Below are positions 4,932 through 13,245 of a stretch of DNA of 27,639 bases, piece after piece. Within the stretch, counting starts at the first letter, position 1. Each line of letters opens with the position of its first letter. The position numbers and the translations under genes were made by a program. The DNA comes from a virus. Its lineage: Duplodnaviria; Caudoviricetes. The notes beneath the pieces are model-generated. The model ran no database searches, was not told the DNA's origin, and saw only the letters and a program-made list of their open reading frames with translations. The DNA lies in the IMG/VR virus record IMGVR_UViG_3300038974_000227, positions 1 through 27,639 of that record; one strand, 5' to 3'.

Positions 4932-6023
4932 TTAATAAGGTACGTCTTGTTTTGGTTCCGCTCCTTTGTCGGGCAGCGAAAGAAGGTGCTTAAAAATGTC
5001 CACCCGCTTTTCTTCCTTAAAGTCTGTCAGTTTGTTGCACTGGCATTTCTCCATATAGCCAACAAGGTCATAGCCTTTCTGAAATGCCATTTTTGTAAGC
5101 GTTACGCATTGGCTGGTTTCGTCGGAGTTATGGAAGTCAACAACGGCGGATTCTTCCGGTGCCGATTTTGTTTCGTCGCCATTGGTATTATTGGGCGGCT
5201 GTTTGTCGTCGTCCTCTTTGGCAATCGTGGTGATATCAATCGGTTCAGCCGCTTTTACATCTTGGGCGATTGCCGCGGGCCCGTATATGCCAGTCATGGC
5301 CTTAATAGAGGCGTCAACAAACTGCTTTTTTACTGTCGCATCCGTGAAGTCGGGACGAAAGACGATCCGCGCCATAACAAAAGGCTTTTCTAGCTCTTTG
5401 GTTGTGTAGGTTTGCTTTAACCCGAGCAACATCCGGAGAACGCGGTTCATAGCCCCGGCCTCACACAGCTTTAATTTGTTCTTCCGTTTCTGAAGCAGAT
5501 CGCGGTTGACGCAATACTCGACGTACTCAACCTTTTCTTTGTCTGTCGCTGCCCGCTGGCCGTTATCCTTCTTCAGATACTTGGCTTTCATTTCGTAATT
5601 GGTTTTCAGTTCTTCCGCGACAACTTCAAAATCCAGATCATATTCAGCCGAGAAAAAAACCGGCTGCCCGTCCGCTTTCTTGATTCCGCCAACGGCTCTA
5701 TAGGCGATATAGTTTCTGTCCGCGCCGTTATCAATGCGCCTGGATTCTGTAGGGGACCAGATCACGCCCGCGCATACGGACAACTTCATAAGCGCCTGCT
5801 TTGTCGGGCGCCATTTCTTGTTCGGGCCCGGTGCCGCATCGTCGTGTTGGTAAACATCCCCGTTATTGGGATCGGTTGAAAGTTGAACTGTTTCGATTAT
5901 CGGCTGATGGAATTCACTCAACCCCGCAATGTGCGTTGACGGCATGAGCAAATTCGCGCCCTGCTTTTTATACGTCTCTAACTGCGTGGAAATATCTTCC
6001 ACCTTTTTTTCTGCTGCTGTCAT
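4932..6023 (-). CDS. hypothetical protein, candidate recombination / ssDNA-annealing protein
   Basis: 363-aa ORF with AGGAGG RBS directly upstream of sbcDC-like pair; acidic linker and small C-terminal domain; function inferred from context only. Confidence 0.5.
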   Translation of the reverse strand: MTAAEKKVEDISTQLETYKKQGANLLMPSTHIAGLSEFHQPIIETVQLSTDPNNGDVYQHDDAAPGPNKKWRPTKQALMKLSVCAGVIWSPTESRRIDNGADRNYIAYRAVGGIKKADGQPVFFSAEYDLDFEVVAEELKTNYEMKAKYLKKDNGQRAATDKEKVEYVEYCVNRDLLQKRKNKLKLCEAGAMNRVLRMLLGLKQTYTTKELEKPFVMARIVFRPDFTDATVKKQFVDASIKAMTGIYGPAAIAQDVKAAEPIDITTIAKEDDDKQPPNNTNGDETKSAPEESAVVDFHNSDETSQCVTLTKMAFQKGYDLVGYMEKCQCNKLTDFKEEKRVDIFKHLLSLPDKGAEPKQDVPY

Positions 6024-6056
6024 TTTTCCGGCCCTCCTATTGTGTTGTTAAGTTAA

Positions 6057-6326
6057 TTAATTTATTCTCTCTAAAGTATTTTTAAAAATTCCGTGGCCTA
6101 TTTCTTTTGTTTCGATAGTCCATCCCATCGGCTTTAATTTTTCTCGCAAATCGCAAATCCTTTTTGTATGCGACAGAATTACTCTTTCGAGATTCATACT
6201 CAATTCCAATCCGGTTGCCGATCCCCTCAACAACCGCCGGTAGATAACGCCGCATTGAGATTCGGGACTGATGTTCAGTGCCGTTAAATCCGGCGGCGGA
6301 TTGAAATTAAGTTCGGCCTGTGTCAC
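6057..6326 (-). CDS. small winged-HTH-like protein
   Basis: IYRRLLRGSATGLEL...SHTKRICDLREKL...GWTIET pattern; GTG start with GGAGG RBS. Confidence 0.6.
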   Translation of the reverse strand: MTQAELNFNPPPDLTALNISPESQCGVIYRRLLRGSATGLELSMNLERVILSHTKRICDLREKLKPMGWTIETKEIGHGIFKNTLERIN

Positions 6327-6493
6327 TTCGCGACCTCCACCTTAACACTGTCCTTTACCGGCTCCGGCTTGTTCGCCAGCCCGATCAGCAAGAAGAACCC
6401 CACGATCACAACTAATCCGTAAATCACCAGAGCGTGGACTATCTGCGTGATAGTCGGTTGTTCGTATTTGTCTTCGTCTTCGTTTTCAAGCAT
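6323..6493 (-). CDS. 56-aa single-pass membrane protein (not in ORF track)
   Basis: GAGGAGG RBS, ATG 6493; MLENEDEDKYEQPTITQIVHALVIYGLVVIVGFFLLIGLANKPEPVKDSVKVEVAK; GTGA overlap with next gene. Confidence 0.7.
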   Translation of the reverse strand: MLENEDEDKYEQPTITQIVHALVIYGLVVIVGFFLLIGLANKPEPVKDSVKVEVAK

Positions 6494-6540
6494 GTTGGCC
6501 TCCTCATCTTGATACTATTAAAGAACTAAGTATATTTACT

Positions 6541-6614
6541 TTACAACTCGCTAATTTATATTTGTTTATTCGTTTCATTCGGAAAATGCCAACTTGGTAT
6601 ATTATGTGTTATAT
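6541..6614 (+). other. degenerate attC or attI-like left boundary of cassette array
   Basis: TTACAAC ... GTTATAT; core site 6608-6614 is the exact complement of ATATAAC at 6806-6812; interior AT-rich and weakly palindromic. Confidence 0.4.
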
Positions 6615-6800
6615 TTCCTCATGTAATATAGACAACGAAACGGTTTGCCATTTTGCTATTTCTTTATTTTCAAGGTGTTGTTTGAGTAGAGGGGGAATGC
6701 TTGACGTTGGAATTTCAATCAACACAGAAGTATTTTCAATATTACCGCCCATGTTGGCGGCTACTGCATAATTTGATATTGTAGCTATGATTTTAAGCAT
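6609..6800 (-). CDS. cassette ORF, 63-aa hypothetical protein
   Basis: GGGAGG RBS lies inside the attC at 6812-6817; TAA stop lies in the GTTA core site. Confidence 0.7.
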   Translation of the reverse strand: MLKIIATISNYAVAANMGGNIENTSVLIEIPTSSIPPLLKQHLENKEIAKWQTVSLSILHEEI

Positions 6801-6805
6801 AAAAA

Positions 6806-6860
6806 ATATAACCTCCCATTAGAGCGGATCGCTGCGCTACGGCTGATTTTTTCGTTATAT
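6806..6860 (+). mobile_element. attC-like recombination site 1 (55 bp)
   Basis: ATATAAC-CTCCC-ATTAGAGC-GGATCGCTGCGCTACG-GCTGATT-TTTTC-GTTATAT fits R''-L''-L'-R' geometry; shares 28/29 nt with site 2. Confidence 0.75.
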
Positions 6861-7040
6861 TTTAATTAAATGACAAGTTGTCTCGGACTTAATCCAAGGA
6901 GCGCCACCATGAAGACTCATAATATCAACGTAAGAGATGCTTTTATCTTCACTTTGCCGAACAACTATGCCAACACTCATCGGCACACGCTTATTATTCA
7001 CAAACACGGCAGTCTCTACTTTATCTCCAACGTCTATCAT
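6855..7040 (-). CDS. cassette ORF, 61-aa hypothetical protein (SH3/KOW-like pattern)
   Basis: MIDVGDKVE...VGIVV...; TAA stop lies in the GTTA of site 1. Confidence 0.65.
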   Translation of the reverse strand: MIDVGDKVETAVFVNNKRVPMSVGIVVRQSEDKSISYVDIMSLHGGAPWIKSETTCHLIKI

Positions 7041-7071
7041 TTTGTTTCATCTTTCTGCCCTGTTAAAAAAC

Positions 7072-7128
7072 ATACAACAAGGGCAATCCAGCCGATGCGC
7101 TGCGCTCCGGCTGATTTTTTCGTTATCC
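7072..7128 (+). mobile_element. attC-like recombination site 2 (57 bp)
   Basis: ATACAAC-AAGGGC-AATCCAGC-CGATGCGCTGCGCTCCG-GCTGATT-TTTTC-GTTATCC; L'' pairs with L' leaving one extra C, the canonical attC asymmetry. Confidence 0.85.
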
Positions 7129-7187
7129 CAATATCTGCCTTTAGATATATCGATCATGCTGACCTCCAAATTCCACTTATTGCGCTG

Positions 7188-7493
7188 TTATCTGTTAACC
7201 AACTTAAGCCAGTCTTGGAATCCTTTGTCTCCTAATGCGACACACAAAGCATTTAAAAGAATATCAGACAATTCATCCCATCCAATATCGATAGAACTTA
7301 AGTGATGTTTACGATAACTTGCTTTCACAGCCTCCAAAAGTATATTTTCACGGGTATTTATAGCGTGTTCATCACCCTTTTTAATGTAATCAGTATAAAG
7401 AACATAATCACCTTCTTTATCAGTCCACATTCTCAATTCATTACCATCACCCGTAAGGCTTGGTTTAATTTTAGGTGTCCATCGTTCAATCAT
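7188..7493 (-). CDS. cassette ORF, 101-aa hypothetical protein
   Basis: AAGGAG RBS; TAA stop lies in GTTATCTG (7187-7194), complement of CAGATAAC (7517-7524). Confidence 0.7.
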   Translation of the reverse strand: MIERWTPKIKPSLTGDGNELRMWTDKEGDYVLYTDYIKKGDEHAINTRENILLEAVKASYRKHHLSSIDIGWDELSDILLNALCVALGDKGFQDWLKLVNR

Positions 7494-7517
7494 TTTTCAT
7501 TCTCCTTTTAAGAAATC

Positions 7518-7575
7518 AGATAACCAGCTCACTACAGGCGACCGCTACCGCGTCGCCTAACTTCGGTCGTTATTT
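7518..7575 (+). mobile_element. attC-like recombination site 3 (58 bp)
   Basis: AGATAAC-CAGCTC-ACTACAGG-CGACCGCTACCGCGTCG-CCTAACT-TCGGTC-GTTATTT; inner stem AGGCGA/TCGCCT and CGC/GCG. Confidence 0.75.
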
Positions 7576-7761
7576 TCCTAATAATCTTAAAACCCACTTC
7601 GGCGGTGAATGTTTCTTGGGCCGATGAAACTTTGTGTTGGTGGATGTAAAATATATATCGGGACAGCCATACCAACCTAGATTACAGTCTGGGCAATAAG
7701 CATCTACGCTTTCCCCTTCGAGCGATCTTATAAAAGCATGAGTATGTTTACATTTTGTCAT
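7570..7761 (-). CDS. cassette ORF, 63-aa putative Zn-binding protein
   Basis: CKH...CPDC; AAGGA RBS; TAA stop lies in the GTTA of site 3. Confidence 0.65.
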   Translation of the reverse strand: MTKCKHTHAFIRSLEGESVDAYCPDCNLGWYGCPDIYFTSTNTKFHRPKKHSPPKWVLRLLGK

Positions 7762-7830
7762 TTTCGTTCCTTTCCTGGATGGTCTTTCGTTAAATGTTCT
7801 CCGTTATTTTTTTAGCCAATTTTGCATTAT

Positions 7831-7992
7831 TCATACACTCACCCACCTCATAATAATGTTCCATATCGCCAACGTAAAAAACCCCATCAGAAACCCCTTC
7901 CAGTGCCTCCCGATGAACCGGCAAATAGCGTCATCGACCTTGTGCTGGTTTATTTTTGTTACTGCCGTTGCGATTGTGTTGATCGGATTCAT
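7831..7992 (-). CDS. small membrane protein
   Basis: GGAGGG RBS, ATG 7992; C-terminal hydrophobic segment FLMGFFTLAIWNIIM. Confidence 0.6.
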   Translation of the reverse strand: MNPINTIATAVTKINQHKVDDAICRFIGRHWKGFLMGFFTLAIWNIIMRWVSV

Positions 7993-8014
7993 TTTCCCTC
8001 CGAGCTTTTTGTGT

Positions 8015-8040
8015 GGCAGGGGCAACCCCTCACCCCTGCC
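8015..8040 (-). terminator. GC-rich hairpin (possible terminator or processing site)
   Basis: GGCAGGGG/CCCCTGCC inverted repeat; no good U-tract on the minus strand. Confidence 0.3.
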
Positions 8041-8110
8041 TATTGGTTACGTATAGCTCGACCTCCTTTCTGGATTTGTTCAGCACTCTTAATTGCTGCG
8101 CTTCCGCAGG

Positions 8111-8392
8111 TTACACTTCCAGTCTGTCCAAAATGCTGTTCAGCGTGTCCGAAATAATGGACAAAGTGTCGTTACTTTTCTGGATGTCTTCAGCAAGAGG
8201 GGTTGAGTACGAGACTCTTTCCGGGCGCGGTTTTTCTGTTTCACACGGACGCAAAACTTTTGACAGTCTGGCCTGTAAATTAAAAACAAGTTCTTTAACT
8301 GTTTCCGTTCTTTCATTGTTTTCTCCGATCCTCGACAATACTTCTGATTCTCTACAATTTCCCGTCATTATTTTTTCTCCTATTCCCGTCAT
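8111..8392 (-). CDS. hypothetical coiled-coil protein
   Basis: 93-aa ORF with AGGAGG RBS; two alternative starts from a 24-bp duplication. Confidence 0.7.
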   Translation of the reverse strand: MTGIGEKIMTGNCRESEVLSRIGENNERTETVKELVFNLQARLSKVLRPCETEKPRPERVSYSTPLAEDIQKSNDTLSIISDTLNSILDRLEV

Positions 8393-8406
8393 TATTTTTC
8401 CTCCTA
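8359..8406. repeat. 24-bp tandem duplication of RBS plus start codon
   Basis: TTCCCGTCATTATTTTTTCTCCTA / TTCCCGTCATTATTTTTCCTCCTA (1 mismatch). Confidence 0.9.
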
Positions 8407-8431
8407 AGTTTTATTTTCTTAATACTGGTTC

Positions 8432-8579
8432 TGGTGGCCGCAGCAGGATTTGATACCTGCATGATCGTCGGCAAGTAAGGAAGTGACGATCTCCTCGAAT
8501 TAGGCCATTCGGTTACTGATTTGTTCACCTGTGCCTCCTTACACTCCCGAAAGCGTCTCTACTCTTCCGCCACACGGCC
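8432..8579 (-). ncRNA. 148-nt tRNA-like RNA with expanded central domain and no canonical anticodon arm
   Basis: acceptor stem GGCCGTG/TGCGGCC + ACCA; D-arm-like TGGCGGAAGAGTAGAGACGC; T arm GCAGG-TATCAAAT-CCTGC; ~90 nt between D and T arms. Confidence 0.8.
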
Positions 8580-8782
8580 ATGTTTTAAAAGATCGCTTGC
8601 CCCAGGATCGCGGACTTGCCGCCGTGTTTCCCCTTCTGCTTTTGCTCTGGCCTTTTGTCGGGTGCGTAGCTTTAAGGCATCTGTCCTCTGCTCGTAAGTC
8701 AGAGCGTGCCGCCCGTTGCCATTGCTGCATGTGGGCTTTTGCTTTGTTGCTATATCGCTACCGCTTGCGCGGTGAGTGAACG

Positions 8783-9604
8783 TCAATAACCAATCAATTC
8801 ATTAATTTTATTGATTGTGTTTTTTTGTTTAGTGTAAAAGAAATCTTGTCCAGCCAGCGTATGCCTGACAACGGAAATTTTATTTCCAGTTATATGGTGC
8901 ATAAGACAGGTTAAAGCATTTTGAGAGACAATACTTCTTTCCGAACCACCAATTCTAACATTGTCAATTCGTCTCAACATATAATTTCTGAATGCTAAAA
9001 TAGGATTTCCAGCGGTAAGATTTTCACCGTTGAAATATTTTATCTCAAAGTCAATCACTTCATTGAAATAGCATTTCGCGGCGAAGGTAAAGGCGGATAG
9101 CGCGGGGGAATACATCAACGATCTAATTAAAGTTTTATTCTCAATAACCGCGTCGATTTCCTTTCTGTAAATATCCATGACTTTATTTACCAAACCAAAT
9201 GATGTTTTGCCGATATGCTTATTGCCGGTGCAAATTGTTATCAATCCACGCACTATTGCGGAACGTAAATTCCCGTTATCCACTCCGATAAGATGTAAAT
9301 TATCGCCAACGCCTCTTAACTTTCCCGTATCTACTGTTAATTGTGATTCAATGGGAAGCTCGGTGACAACGAGCATTTCGAGAGTAACGCCTGATTGAAT
9401 AATTGCCCAAAGCCGATGTTGTCCGTCAATCAATACGCCGTTTATATCAAAACCAATTCCCTGATTATTTGGTCTCCATAAACCAAGCCTCATATCCCTT
9501 GCGTAACAATCAACGGTTAATTGATATACCGGTCTATTGTGGGTATTAGAGGACAGCATTTTTTCTGCGATCTTCGGAGTTATAAGCATTGTTTTTATTT
9601 TCAT
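8783..9604 (-). CDS. ParB/Srx-like N-terminal domain protein
   Basis: ITPKIAEKML..NTHNR, LIDGQHRLWAI, VDTGKLR; ATG 9604 with GGGAGG RBS; AT-rich. Confidence 0.75.
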   Translation of the reverse strand: MKIKTMLITPKIAEKMLSSNTHNRPVYQLTVDCYARDMRLGLWRPNNQGIGFDINGVLIDGQHRLWAIIQSGVTLEMLVVTELPIESQLTVDTGKLRGVGDNLHLIGVDNGNLRSAIVRGLITICTGNKHIGKTSFGLVNKVMDIYRKEIDAVIENKTLIRSLMYSPALSAFTFAAKCYFNEVIDFEIKYFNGENLTAGNPILAFRNYMLRRIDNVRIGGSERSIVSQNALTCLMHHITGNKISVVRHTLAGQDFFYTKQKNTINKINELIGY

Positions 9605-9615
9605 ATTTTCCTCCC

Positions 9616-10128
9616 TTAATGATTTTTTGACCATTCGATAAATATTTGCTTGTCTTTTTTGGTTGCTTTTCTCCACCAGCGTTTAAGCTGAAAAACCGCG
9701 TCTGAATCTTCACAGGCCATTTCCTTTTCGCCGGTGACTTCTTTTACAACATTGGCAACGTGAGCCGCCGTGATCTTGCCTTCCGGCGCGGTTTCAACGG
9801 CTTTCTGCCATGCTTCGCGTTGCTGATCGGGTTCGAGGCGGGCAAGGGGACGGGTTTGATATTCGTTTGCTGGCCTTTGTAAGCAATCGCTTACATTTTC
9901 TATGACCCTTGCTGAATCAATAAACTGATAAGCTGTCTGCCGCGTAAACGACCATCTTGCTTTACAATAAGCCTCAAAGGTATCAAATCCCAGAACGTCC
10001 CGATAAAGACCCTTATCCCTGATTTCCATCAGCGCCCGGCCTACTTCATAAAATGCGCCGATGTTCTTCTTGATGACGTTTTCAAGCTGTTCAAGCTCCA
10101 CTGAATTTTTTTTGATTGCTAATTCCAT
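9616..10128 (-). CDS. hypothetical DNA-binding phage protein
   Basis: FYEVGRALMEIRDKGLYR...TFEAYCKARW...NEYQTRPL...GKITAAHV pattern seen in phage HTH-like proteins. Confidence 0.65.
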   Translation of the reverse strand: MELAIKKNSVELEQLENVIKKNIGAFYEVGRALMEIRDKGLYRDVLGFDTFEAYCKARWSFTRQTAYQFIDSARVIENVSDCLQRPANEYQTRPLARLEPDQQREAWQKAVETAPEGKITAAHVANVVKEVTGEKEMACEDSDAVFQLKRWWRKATKKDKQIFIEWSKNH

Positions 10129-10221
10129 TTTCCAACCTCTATTTGTGTGTCGATGATTATCTCGTTCATTAATTCACCCCCTGATGTTTTGTCCGTGTGG
10201 GCTTTTGTTCTGTTGTGAGTG

Positions 10222-10249
10222 ATTATACACTTTTGATATTACCTGTCAA
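10222..10249 (-). promoter_or_regulatory. leftward sigma70 promoter
   Basis: TTGACA (10249-10244), 16 bp, TATAAT (10227-10222). Confidence 0.8.
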
Positions 10250-10272
10250 GCTTTTTTTTAATAATTTTTTTC

Positions 10273-10301
10273 TTGACACAAAATATAATGTAATGTAAGA
10301 T
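10273..10301 (+). promoter_or_regulatory. rightward sigma70 promoter
   Basis: TTGACA (10273-10278), 17 bp, TAAGAT (10296-10301). Confidence 0.75.
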
Positions 10302-10308
10302 GTTATCC

Positions 10309-10497
10309 ATGATTGATACAACTCTTATAGAAACAAGACGGAAAAAACTAAAAATATCTAAATATAAAATGGCTGATAAGCTGAATATGAGTCGGCAGAC
10401 ATATTACAGTATCCTTAAAAATAAATCAACAACATTAAATACTTTGGAGAAAATAGCTGATGTTCTCGGCCTTAAATCAAAGGATTTAATAATTTAG
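10309..10497 (+). CDS. Cro/XRE-family HTH regulator, probably leaderless
   Basis: RKKLKISKYKMADKLNMSRQTYYSIL...TLNTLEKIADVLG; ATG 10309 coincides with predicted transcription start. Confidence 0.88.
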   Translation: MIDTTLIETRRKKLKISKYKMADKLNMSRQTYYSILKNKSTTLNTLEKIADVLGLKSKDLII

Positions 10498-10556
10498 CGC
10501 AAGGAAGCTGATTGATAATTAAGCAACAAAAATACAAACGTAGTAACCGGAGCGCA

Positions 10557-10745
10557 ATGAGTAACGATTCTACCAGCCATTCTAAACAAAAACAAGACTA
10601 CCGCAAAGACGGCCTCTGCACGGCGAACAAATATCAAGAGAAGGACTGCAAGCATTTTAAGCCCTACGAAAGTTTTGTCTGCCGCTATCCGAATATTTGC
10701 AAGTTTCAAGGGGAAAAGACTGTGTGTAATTGGGTGAAGGAATGA
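10557..10745 (+). CDS. small Cys-rich hypothetical protein
   Basis: GGAG RBS, five Cys, ATGA overlap with the methyltransferase. Confidence 0.5.
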   Translation: MSNDSTSHSKQKQDYRKDGLCTANKYQEKDCKHFKPYESFVCRYPNICKFQGEKTVCNWVKE

Positions 10746-11716
10746 AAGTTAATATTCTGCATGGTGATTGGATAGAACAATTAAAGACGCTGGAAGCTGA
10801 GTCTGTCCAATGCTGTGTTACGTCTCCGCCATATTGGGGTTTGAGGGATTACGGCGTTTCCGGTCAACTAGGTTTAGAGAAAACCCCCGAAGAATACGTT
10901 GAAAAAATGGTTGCCGGTTTCCGTGAAGTAAAAAGAGTTTTGCGGAATGACGGGACGCTGTGGGTTAATTTGGGGGATAGTTATAACGGCTCTGGTGGAG
11001 CTGGTGGCGATTATATAGAGGGTGGTTTGAAGGAAGGTCAGCCAAAATATCCAGGCCGCCACATAAATAATCTAAAGCCAAAAGACCTCATCGGCATCCC
11101 CTGGCGCGTGGCGTTCGCATTACAGGCTGACGGTTGGTATCTTCGCCAAGATATTATTTGGGCGAAACCTAATCCCATGCCGGAATCAGTTACAGACCGC
11201 TGCACAAAATCCCATGAGTATATTTTTCTCCTGAGTAAATCGGCAAGGTATTTTTATGATGCAGACGCGATCAAGGAAAGACAAGCGGAATCATCAGCCG
11301 AACGTGCTTTGTATGGATGGAATGGAAGAAATGATGACGGAAGTAATGGAGCAAGAACCGGCGCGGGGATCCGCAAGATGAAAGAAAGTGGAATGAGTAT
11401 GGGTGAAGCCGGACTAATTCCCCTTGATGGAATGAGAAATAAAAGATCCGTATGGTTAATAACAACCAAGCCTTACAAAGAAGCCCACTTTGCCACATTC
11501 CCTCAAGAAATCCCCAGAACCTGTATTTTAGCCGGAAGCAAAAAAGGCGACACTATCCTTGACCCGTTCTGTGGAAGTGGAACCACGGGCGAAGTAGCCT
11601 TGAAACTAGACCGTAATTTCATCGGCATTGAACTTAATGAAAAATATGTGACGGATTTAATTATCCCACGACTGGATAATGTTGACCCGTTGTTCAGGAT
11701 GGAGGCAAGCGAATGA
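10742..11716 (+). CDS. N4-cytosine/N6-adenine DNA methyltransferase (beta class)
   Basis: VTSPPYWGLRDY motif IV before ILDPFCGSGTT motif I; HFATFP; GIELN. Confidence 0.95.
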   Translation: MKVNILHGDWIEQLKTLEAESVQCCVTSPPYWGLRDYGVSGQLGLEKTPEEYVEKMVAGFREVKRVLRNDGTLWVNLGDSYNGSGGAGGDYIEGGLKEGQPKYPGRHINNLKPKDLIGIPWRVAFALQADGWYLRQDIIWAKPNPMPESVTDRCTKSHEYIFLLSKSARYFYDADAIKERQAESSAERALYGWNGRNDDGSNGARTGAGIRKMKESGMSMGEAGLIPLDGMRNKRSVWLITTKPYKEAHFATFPQEIPRTCILAGSKKGDTILDPFCGSGTTGEVALKLDRNFIGIELNEKYVTDLIIPRLDNVDPLFRMEASE

Positions 11717-12173: not shown

Positions 12174-12265
12174 AAGTGTCCGACAAATATCTTAGAGACC
12201 TTTTACGCAAAGAAAAGCTCATGGCGGAGTTGACGCGGTTAGGGGTACGGGGGTGGCGCCCTTGA
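12170..12265 (+). CDS. 31-aa hypothetical peptide (not in ORF track)
   Basis: GAGGA RBS; ATGA overlap upstream and TTGA overlap with C5-MTase start; MKVSDKYLRDLLRKEKLMAELTRLGVRGWRP. Confidence 0.45.
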   Translation: MKVSDKYLRDLLRKEKLMAELTRLGVRGWRP

Positions 12266-13245
12266 AAGTCGGTTCTTTATTTACCGGCATCGGCGGCTTT
12301 GATTTAGGTTTTGAACGTGCCGGAATGGAAATAGCGTGGCAGGTTGAAATAGATGAATTTTGCAACAAGGTTTTAGCCAAACATTGGCCGAATGTAAAAA
12401 GGTTTAAAGATGTCAAAACAGTTAGCGGAAAAGAACTTGAACCAGTCGACCTTCTTTGCGGAGGGGTACCTTGCCAGCCGGCCAGTTGCGCCGGGAAGCG
12501 TCGAGGCACAAAAGATGACCGTTGGCTCTGGAAAGAGCCTTTTAGAATCATTGCCGAACTCGACCCGAAACCAAAGTGGTGCGTCTTTGAGAATGTTAGA
12601 GGATTGCTTACTCTTGAAAACGGATTGGTATTCGACAATCTGCTTTCTGAATTGGAAAATCTTGGCTACGAAACAAGGACGTTTTGTCTTCCAGCTTGCG
12701 CCGTCAATGCCCCGCACAGAAGGGATAGAGTCTGGATTGTTGCGAACTCCAGATGCGAACATGGAGAGAGGGCAGCGGTCAGAGGAGAACCTAATAGACC
12801 GTTATCATGTGAGGAAAGCGCCTCTTTGCTTAAACGACCAATTAGCAATGATGGACAAGGGATTGCTCCCGACACCGGAAGGAACATCAGCGGGGCCGGA
12901 TTATTCGAAACTGGAACGGAGCAAAACGGGAATAAGCCTTCAAACAGCGGTGGGGATGTGTCCGACTGCCCGTTCATCGGATTACAAGGGCGCATCAAAA
13001 CAGTACGAGAAGAAGGGCAGAAATCCCATGACGAACAGTTGCATGGATGCCGTGGAGAATGGTCTGAACCGTGGCTTGAAGTTGCAACCCGCCTTTGTGG
13101 AATACCTCATGGGGTATCCGAAGAATTATACAAACTTGAAACTTCCGACAGAGTGGCAAGGCTAAAGGCACTAGGAAACGCAATAGTGCCACAAATACCA
13201 GAGATTTTAGGCAGGGCGATTATGGGGATAGACCATGAGACTTAA
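12262..13245 (+). CDS. C5-cytosine DNA methyltransferase, catalytic (alpha) chain lacking motif IX
   Basis: motif I LFTGIGG, IV GGVPCQ, VI ENV, VIII APHRRDRVW, X RLKALGNAIVP; start TTG 12262 or GTG 12253. Confidence 0.92.
   Translation: MKVGSLFTGIGGFDLGFERAGMEIAWQVEIDEFCNKVLAKHWPNVKRFKDVKTVSGKELEPVDLLCGGVPCQPASCAGKRRGTKDDRWLWKEPFRIIAELDPKPKWCVFENVRGLLTLENGLVFDNLLSELENLGYETRTFCLPACAVNAPHRRDRVWIVANSRCEHGERAAVRGEPNRPLSCEESASLLKRPISNDGQGIAPDTGRNISGAGLFETGTEQNGNKPSNSGGDVSDCPFIGLQGRIKTVREEGQKSHDEQLHGCRGEWSEPWLEVATRLCGIPHGVSEELYKLETSDRVARLKALGNAIVPQIPEILGRAIMGIDHET
12410..13165 (+). CDS. C5-methyltransferase beta chain in overlapping +1 frame (TRD repeats + motif IX)
   Basis: LLRTPDA / LLPTP / MCPTARSSDYKG repeats and LQPAFVEYLMGYPKNYT (motif IX); 251 codons open inside another gene. 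Confidence 0.8.
   Translation: MSKQLAEKNLNQSTFFAEGYLASRPVAPGSVEAQKMTVGSGKSLLESLPNSTRNQSGASLRMLEDCLLLKTDWYSTICFLNWKILATKQGRFVFQLAPSMPRTEGIESGLLRTPDANMERGQRSEENLIDRYHVRKAPLCLNDQLAMMDKGLLPTPEGTSAGPDYSKLERSKTGISLQTAVGMCPTARSSDYKGASKQYEKKGRNPMTNSCMDAVENGLNRGLKLQPAFVEYLMGYPKNYTNLKLPTEWQG

Follow-up and report, generated by a model that had tools for sequence, protein, structure and literature searches.

Why should the small genes of an integron-like array in a phage be read against the polarity of the recombination sites between which they lie? The stretch of DNA that raises this question, referred to below as the window, comprises 27,639 nucleotides (27.6 kb) and is the viral record IMGVR_UViG_3300038974_000227, which represents a 46% complete phage. 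Divergent early promoters near 10250 separate a leftward arm, with SbcCD, HNH and NinB-like genes, from a rightward arm with methylases, replication initiator, terminase, portal and capsid, and the phage has recombination genes of its own. On the rightward side, a C5 methylase ORF (PF00145) and a second methylase-like ORF (12410-13165, phrog_1008) overlap within 12253-13245, on the same strand and in different frames. The first-pass annotation had treated the array in the leftward arm as a bare cluster of attC sites with inverted ORFs. In doing so it missed the attI sites, and the array is better described as an integron platform without an integrase. Our main reading, which we hold with a probability of about 80%, is that this platform is set backwards in the leftward early operon and is recombined, in the ordinary polarity, by a host IntI acting in trans.

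Three attC sites are present in the window:

6806..6860, plus strand: attC site 1, chimeric, 34 bits; its left arm is of one attC type and its right arm of the site-2 type.
7072..7128, plus strand: attC site 2, of a Syntrophales-type family, with the crossover at G7122; 51.5 bits on the plus strand and 7.8 on the minus strand.
7518..7575, plus strand: attC site 3, with a degenerate L box and the crossover at G7569; 21.5 bits, E 0.0015, inner stem z about -2.

These sites are the only matches in the window to R1, a covariance model of 71 attC sites taken from bacterial integron loci only. Genome contigs had been scanned with the central motif of sites 1 and 2, which gave at least 126 loci, mostly from Syntrophales and otherwise from other Desulfobacterota; 5/73 non-family candidates, judged false or likely to be of phage origin, were excluded from training, as were a few near-duplicates. 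In the R1 sites 93.4% of the cells are paired and 8 of 13 pairs show a compensatory change, figures that lean towards structure, as the sites were picked by pairing score. A search of Rfam gave no match. The strand of the model hit, which the first-pass annotation had proposed as a check of polarity, is plus for all three sites, and the best minus-strand score on them is 7.8 bits. It had also proposed folding both strands: unconstrained folding did not separate them, and for site 2, folded with its R box as in a circular cassette, the bottom strand reached -9.0 and the top strand -7.8 kcal/mol. The R''-L''-centre-L'-R' repeats, the GTT core and the extra base on the L'' arm are clear in site 2 and degenerate in sites 1 and 3, whose L boxes had rightly been called degenerate; on the plus strand of site 2 an 8-base L'' (7085-7092) lies to the left and a 7-base L' (7110-7116) to the right, again as first read. 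Site 1 folds no better than its shuffles. The type of its left arm is found in intact form in L325, and a 29-nt repeat is common to sites 1 and 2; other studies contain the same sequence as far as its core, which excludes an assembly error as the source of the chimera.

The plus strand is the top strand, and this polarity is now firmly confirmed. It had rested mainly on site 2, and it can now be read independently from the intI-linked host arrays, from the position of the two attI-like sites and from the breakpoints of relatives, as well as from the strand of R1. The site-2 family stands behind a divergent intI that passes the integron integrase cut-off in four host loci (L095, L119, L131 and L162), and one site of the L119 array resembles, on the same strand, what we take to be the classical aadA-type attC. 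The converse, that minus is the true top strand and the orientation canonical, could appeal to the spacers of site 2, which are 6 + 5 on the plus strand and read 5 + 6 on the minus, and to unconstrained folding, which barely tells the strands apart; yet the R1 strand, the host arrays behind intI, the attI position and the cassette boundaries in L424 and X7 all point to plus, and we give this view hardly any credence. The recombinogenic (bottom) strand is the coding strand, as had been proposed: all three cassette ORFs are found on it, and none on the top strand, where a cassette ORF is typical though not obligatory.

What stands at the start of each array is not an attC site:

6580..6614, plus strand: attI-like site of class A, crossover G6608/T6609; the same motif lies beside divergent intI in hosts.
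7168..7193, plus strand: attI-like site of class B, crossover G7187/T7188; the same motif lies beside confirmed intI in L095, L119 and L162.

In seven loci (L131, L240, L255, L264, L277, L293 and L304) a divergent intI starts 97-217 bases away from the class A motif. In L131 the distance is 159 bases and the IntI is confirmed by TIGR02249; the other intI-like calls beside this motif are motif-based. The motif occurs in 121 metagenome loci, where an intI-like ORF shares the locus with 9 of 133 distinct sites, seven of them at 97-217 bases. Four host genomes searched for the class A core contain 15, 9, 6 and 1 copies, and the reversed control 0. In viral DNA, the sequence preceding G6608 is found again where inverted arrays have their left end (L022, L036, L058, L062, L069 and, in part, L023). 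The class B motif adjoins a shorter class of IntI (L095, L119, L162) and is also present in 66 viral loci. Judged by sequence, both array starts are attI-like sites that match those beside two host intI classes. DNA from four other studies has attI-B directly joined to the gene at 6323-6493, and the window is therefore a tandem of two platforms.

Several observations on attI copies elsewhere may be recorded here. Single phages with tandem attI sites include L215 (6001-6026 and 6653-6678), L374 and L424, and in L215 a truncated DUF5131-like gene start lies between the two sites, as it does in the window. A site-2-family attC without R' is fused directly to the upstream region of attI-A in L325 (60-110). 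The host genomes G035, G036 and G037 (L223-L236) have 6, 15 and 9 class A attI cores, most of them without intI nearby and followed by forward cassettes; these cores, together with those of metagenome loci L237-L357, look like multi-site integron platforms that one integrase would serve.

Between the site 2 core and attI-B lies a fragment of a further gene:

7123..7167, minus strand: 5' remnant (11 codons and a GGAGG) of a DUF5131-like phage gene, cut at the site 2 core.

It corresponds to the beginning of a PF07505 gene that is intact in L087, and the same segment occurs in L091 and L067. The stretch 7122-7186 had been considered as a cassette remnant, a candidate rejected on finding this gene start and attI-B in it. 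A bare attG site at 6608 was rejected as well, given the conserved attI-like motif there. More generally, the cassettes might have been inserted at random GWT secondary (attG) sites to give a small CALIN. Insertion at GWT has been published (10.1101/2022.09.11.507474), and the 7122 junction, which falls within a gene, resembles such an event and may be one. As an account of the array we consider it very improbable: 6608 and 7187 are conserved attI-like sites with ~20-28 bases in common with host integrons, not bare GWT, and the orientation is strongly biased here, in contrast to that paper, which found no strand bias.

The four ORFs are as follows:

6609..6800, minus strand: ORF1, 63 aa; stop in the attI-A crossover, GGAGG within the left spacer of attC site 1, one near-identical homologue.
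6855..7040, minus strand: ORF2, 61 aa; stop in R' of site 1, two homologues at 56-57% identity.
7188..7493, minus strand: ORF3, 101 aa; stop in the attI-B crossover, 20 homologues.
7570..7761, minus strand: ORF4, 63 aa; the right half of the last core comes from its stop, 14 homologues with E up to 0.001.

That all four are on the minus strand, and that each TAA is the complement of the TTA in a GTTA (G at 6608, 6854, 7187 and 7569), was correctly seen at first. The accompanying statement that all four stops lie in attC cores holds for those at 6855 and 7570, and fails for those at 6609 and 7188, which lie in attI-like crossovers. Neither the GTTA at 6608 is an attC core nor that at 7187 the core of site 2, the G of which is 7122; no complete ORF ends in the site 2 core. 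Likewise, the four cassette ORFs reduce to three complete cassettes, with ORF4, which lacks an attC on its right, falling outside any intact cassette. The GTTA stops exceed chance. In viral loci, control GTTA sites serve as the stop of a minus ORF of at least 50 aa in 145/1825 and 53/526 cases (8-10%), and among the other left-arm genes of the window one of 13 stops in GTTA. An inverted ORF stops at +1 after the class A motif in 8 of 10 viral sites and in 0 of 16 genomic ones, against the 8-10% of control GTTA, and after the class B motif in 21 of 51 distinct viral sites.

None of ORF1-ORF4 has a PHROG or Pfam match. The left spacer of attC site 1 (6801-6820, bottom strand) forms the ribosome-binding site of ORF1. 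The copy of ORF3 in L424 has two in-frame deletions and three synonymous and five non-synonymous codon changes. For ORF4, no viral locus was found; it is either a resident phage gene or a cassette that has lost its attC, and it stands directly behind attI-B in an X7 contig. The protein P0025 (5932 aa) has ten ORF4-like stretches, and ORF4 may represent one such repeat domain on its own. Two plus-strand ORFs, 6870-7235 and 6937-7305, were rejected as cassette genes; both cross site 2 and attI-B. To the right of ORF4, a 14-codon minus-strand ORF (7790-7834) that is coupled to the stop of 7831-8025 has its own end in a GTTA (7789); in other runs, contigs start at ~7805, and 7803 (within 7803-7809) may be an old crossover whose attC has been lost. 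Further on, there is a 24-base tandem duplication (8359-8406) at the start of the ORF 8111-8392, and at 8461-8564 relatives swap a segment at nearly fixed ends with many joints, a second variable slot without attC.

Cassettes of the array were compared in contigs of eight runs (X1 being left out). The three complete ones are:

6609..6854, plus strand: cassette 1, 246 bp; own R''/R' match 7/7.
6855..7122, plus strand: cassette 2, 268 bp; own R''/R' match 6/7, against 4/7 in situ.
7188..7569, plus strand: cassette 3, 382 bp; own R''/R' match 7/7.

Cassette 1 is found as a discrete piece (6608-6854) in the runs of other studies, once behind an attC and not an attI, and three other studies contain cassette 2 as a discrete piece (6854-7096). 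In the complete phage G039 (L424) cassette 3 follows a different attC, starts at the same G/TT and keeps its R'' on the right, and one X7 contig joins 7186 to 7569, skipping exactly the 382 bases of this cassette. In L087, a relative with the same order of flanking genes, there are no cassettes at the position of the array. The flanks behave in the same manner at both attI-like sites: L258, L336 and L325 match the window up to G6608 and continue with other cassettes after G/TT, and L067, L091, L419, L421 and L422 have the left side of the window and diverge after the G/TT at G7187. On sequence comparison, relatives thus exchange cassettes exactly at G/TT, with the attC carried on the 3' side of the top strand (L424, X7 and the discrete pieces). 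The R'' of inverted viral cassettes matches their own left R' at 7/7 in 47 of 61 cases and the in situ R' in 4 of 61; for host forward cassettes the corresponding counts are 92 and 5 of 138. The stops mirror each other as well, with 34/61 inverted cassettes ending at +1 of R' and 36/138 forward cassettes ending in R''. In related arrays the last core falls on the TAA of core genes, for example those of a PD-(D/E)XK-like nuclease and a replication protein.

These exchanges also bear on the idea that the array is a fossil, captured once, whose differences among relatives stem mainly from phage homologous recombination between attC arms and attI modules. A homologous route clearly operates alongside: the phage encodes recombination genes, site 1 is a chimera with attC bodies swapped at the central repeat, and the attI-B module is joined to differing left genes at a shared ribosome-binding segment. 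Since sites 1 and 3 are degenerate and site 1 folds like its shuffles, some junctions may be products of homologous recombination between shared right arms. However, the attI exchange occurs at G/TT with only 3-4 shared bases on the right, and the R''/R' complementarity of each cassette is kept in those 47 of 61 cases. We regard a fossil array as unlikely.

Is the inversion peculiar to this window? The motif of the site family was found in 86 viral loci. From the R1 matches, 149/191 viral and 257/300 genome ones were kept, overlapping or near-identical loci, loci with short flanks and a few opposite-strand matches being dropped, and the longest ORF between each pair of consecutive sites decided the class of that interval. 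Of 102 viral intervals, 61 were inverted, 15 forward, 13 ambiguous and 13 without ORF; for 179 genome intervals the counts were 7, 138, 12 and 22. Six of the seven inverted genome intervals are found in three loci with phage-type cargo. Counted per locus, 21 of 34 viral loci were inverted and 6 forward, compared with 3 and 48 of 55 genomic loci; the Fisher p of 8e-11 overstates independence, as many of the viral loci are related and the counts are not independent. A second viral set, chosen by attI motif (n=64), gave 43 inverted, 7 forward, 6 ambiguous and 8 without ORF. The survey of ORF orientation by homologous phage sites that had been suggested thus came out mostly inverted in viral contigs. 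The proposed phage-adapted class of cassettes is borne out so far as the layout is enriched in phages (61/102 viral against 7/179 genome intervals), and the word 'adapted', that is, selection for inversion, should be read as conjecture.

PHROG matches were obtained for 23 of 82 inverted or ambiguous ORFs, and include six DNA methylases, two Mom-like proteins, two RNA ligases, one PAPS reductase and three members of the Tad2-like family. The Tad2-like genes lie in inverted cassettes (L091, 762-1055; L016, 3688-3972; L018, 5957-6196), and PF11195 was confirmed for two. As a divider of phage from host cargo the PHROG match rate was rejected (23/82 versus 27/69); only the kinds of match differ. 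Exceptions to the rule are viral arrays with forward ORFs (L001, L013, L015 and L068), two of which, L001 and L013, carry short phage-like ORFs in their forward cassettes. One phage group (L002, 611-665; L070; L032) has attC sites on both strands within 600 bases.

Which enzyme could recombine such arrays? No tyrosine recombinase was seen among the 47 ORFs of the window and none matched TIGR02249, in a record that is 46% complete. The same model found nothing over its cut-off in 32 viral records, 13 of which are at least 90% complete, and the complete phage G039, with cassette 3 and a class A site, matches neither TIGR02249 nor PF00589. Because host integrons have both of these attI classes and the same attC family, a host IntI acting in trans is the most likely catalyst. 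The arrays could instead be driven by an Xer-like or other non-IntI tyrosine recombinase encoded by the phage and lost here or located outside the record, which is incomplete. Indeed, G042 has a non-IntI PF00589 protein of 278 aa ~1.3 kb from attI-B, and G008, G011 and G028 have tyrosine recombinases near or away from their arrays. PF00589 matches, however, were found in only 4 of 34 records and in 0 of 5 further ones, complete records included; the enzyme of G008 follows an excisionase-like ORF and resembles an ordinary prophage integrase; and in hosts it is true IntI genes that adjoin both attI classes and this attC family. A phage enzyme of this kind therefore seems to us improbable, if somewhat less so than the fossil array.

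With a host IntI as the preferred catalyst, the reversed reading direction may be related to transcription of the leftward arm:

10222..10249, minus strand: likely leftward early promoter, which would read the array; a consensus match, 12/12 to sigma-70 and the best in 6000-10800.

The first-pass suggestion that the ORFs are co-oriented with a leftward promoter agrees with this perfect consensus (10249-10222) and with the direction of the operon that the ORFs follow. During infection or lysogeny of a Syntrophales-type host, IntI would insert circular cassettes at attI via the folded bottom strand, new ones entering at the promoter-distal end. Phage transcription runs against the direction in which attI faces, and the phage promoter would therefore read only those cassettes whose ORF is inverted. 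Before any insertion, the attI crossover would overlap the TAA stop of the upstream resident gene, and a cassette could therefore enter without breaking a gene; the stop of inverted cassettes in R' would be the mirror image of this, just as that of forward cassettes is often in R''. In this manner the phage likely uses the host's enzyme to swap accessory genes.

What the phage might gain from the inversion is less certain. Our preferred reading, to which we would give slightly less than an even chance, is that the recombinase is shared and expression is separated, so that host cassettes would be antisense and silent in the phage and phage cassettes silent in the host. Forward host-like cassettes do occur within inverted arrays, with the same attC orientation (L036, L041 and L069), and would be antisense there. 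Two findings weigh against it: PADLOC matched only 7 of 69 host cassettes, mostly through generic domains, and plus-strand promoter-like matches upstream of attI-A (6509-6536 and 6535-6562) would read the ORFs antisense, in a region with 15 such matches where 12 +/- 4 are expected. The idea that the top strand ends in a T run, acting as a terminator that phages avoid, was not supported by T-run counts and a terminator scan. Over 87 sites, T-rich 8-mers after the inner stem numbered 20 on the top and 8 on the bottom strand, and after the R box 8 and 30, and the scan listed none of the three attC sites. Lagging-strand exposure of the bottom strand may also lead to higher excision (PMC5371416). 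More speculative than separated expression, and offered tentatively, is the wider picture in which phages run a mirror-image integron gene pool on the host integrase. Host attI would have been copied into operon junctions with the crossover overlapping a stop codon, phage genes (methylases, Mom, Tad2-like, RNA ligase) would have been made into inverted cassettes, new cassettes would be made there, and the pools of defence and counter-defence genes would be mutually silent.

Integrons are seen as bacterial tools and, lately, as stores of anti-phage genes, and defence genes are kept in the chromosomal integrons of hosts (10.1101/2024.07.02.601686). It appears that phages of anaerobic Syntrophales-type hosts tap into this system in the opposite reading direction, and DNA-modification and Tad2-like genes are among the cargo of related arrays. 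If true, this would give phages programmed shuffling of accessory genes at no enzyme cost. How cassettes arise is stated to be unknown (PMC4889954), and the window bears on that origin, since the cargo is related to ordinary phage genes. It also provides, for hosts that have been little studied as a group, two attI classes with matching integrases, which makes a direct test feasible. The literature covered, mostly outside subscription journals, contained no account of systematic inversion of phage cassettes, nor of host attI copied into phages without intI; there may be inverted cases among the 17 phage CALINs in the supplements of Qi et al.

The window differs in distinct ways from each of the systems that it resembles. 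Self-promoted inverted cassettes are known from chromosomal integrons, for example some toxin-antitoxin cassettes. They share with the window an ORF antisense to the attC top strand; in bacterial arrays, though, they are rare exceptions, whereas in the phage arrays inversion is the rule and the promoter likely lies outside. Exceptions to promoterless cassettes are mentioned by Nivina 2016 (PMC5027507), where attC strand selectivity is attributed to extrahelical bases, the spacer and terminal structure. With three attC sites and no intI the window falls under the formal definition of a CALIN (Cury et al. 2016, PMC4889954), yet it has attI sites; with regard to a complete integron, intI is absent beside the array, and a putative attI at its start is indicated by sequence, position and the variable cassettes downstream. 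Like SALIN or attG insertion (Loot et al., 10.1101/2022.09.11.507474), it implies an IntI that acts outside the integron to which it belongs, at a target with a GTT core, but here the targets are full attI copies reused many times, not random GWT, and orientation is biased. The phage CALINs of Qi et al. 2023 (PMC9892861), whose attC sites recombine with bottom-strand preference, are similar in having several attC sites, no intI nearby, small ORFs and methyltransferase cargo in the class. Section 3.4 of that paper describes the TJE1 and PH101 cassettes as typical of bacterial arrays and reports no systematic ORF inversion there; the window differs in its host-type attI without intI, its inverted ORFs and the G/TT exchange among its relatives. 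A further likeness is with the sedentary chromosomal integrons of Syntrophales-type Desulfobacterota (L095, L119, L131 and L162), which have the same attC family, both attI classes, the same crossover and the own R''/R' complementarity. Those host arrays, however, have intI and forward ORFs with a median of 180 aa, while the phage arrays have no IntI and inverted phage-type ORFs with a median of 82 aa. To these systems the window adds two attI classes matched to two host integrase classes and an exact empty-site joint.
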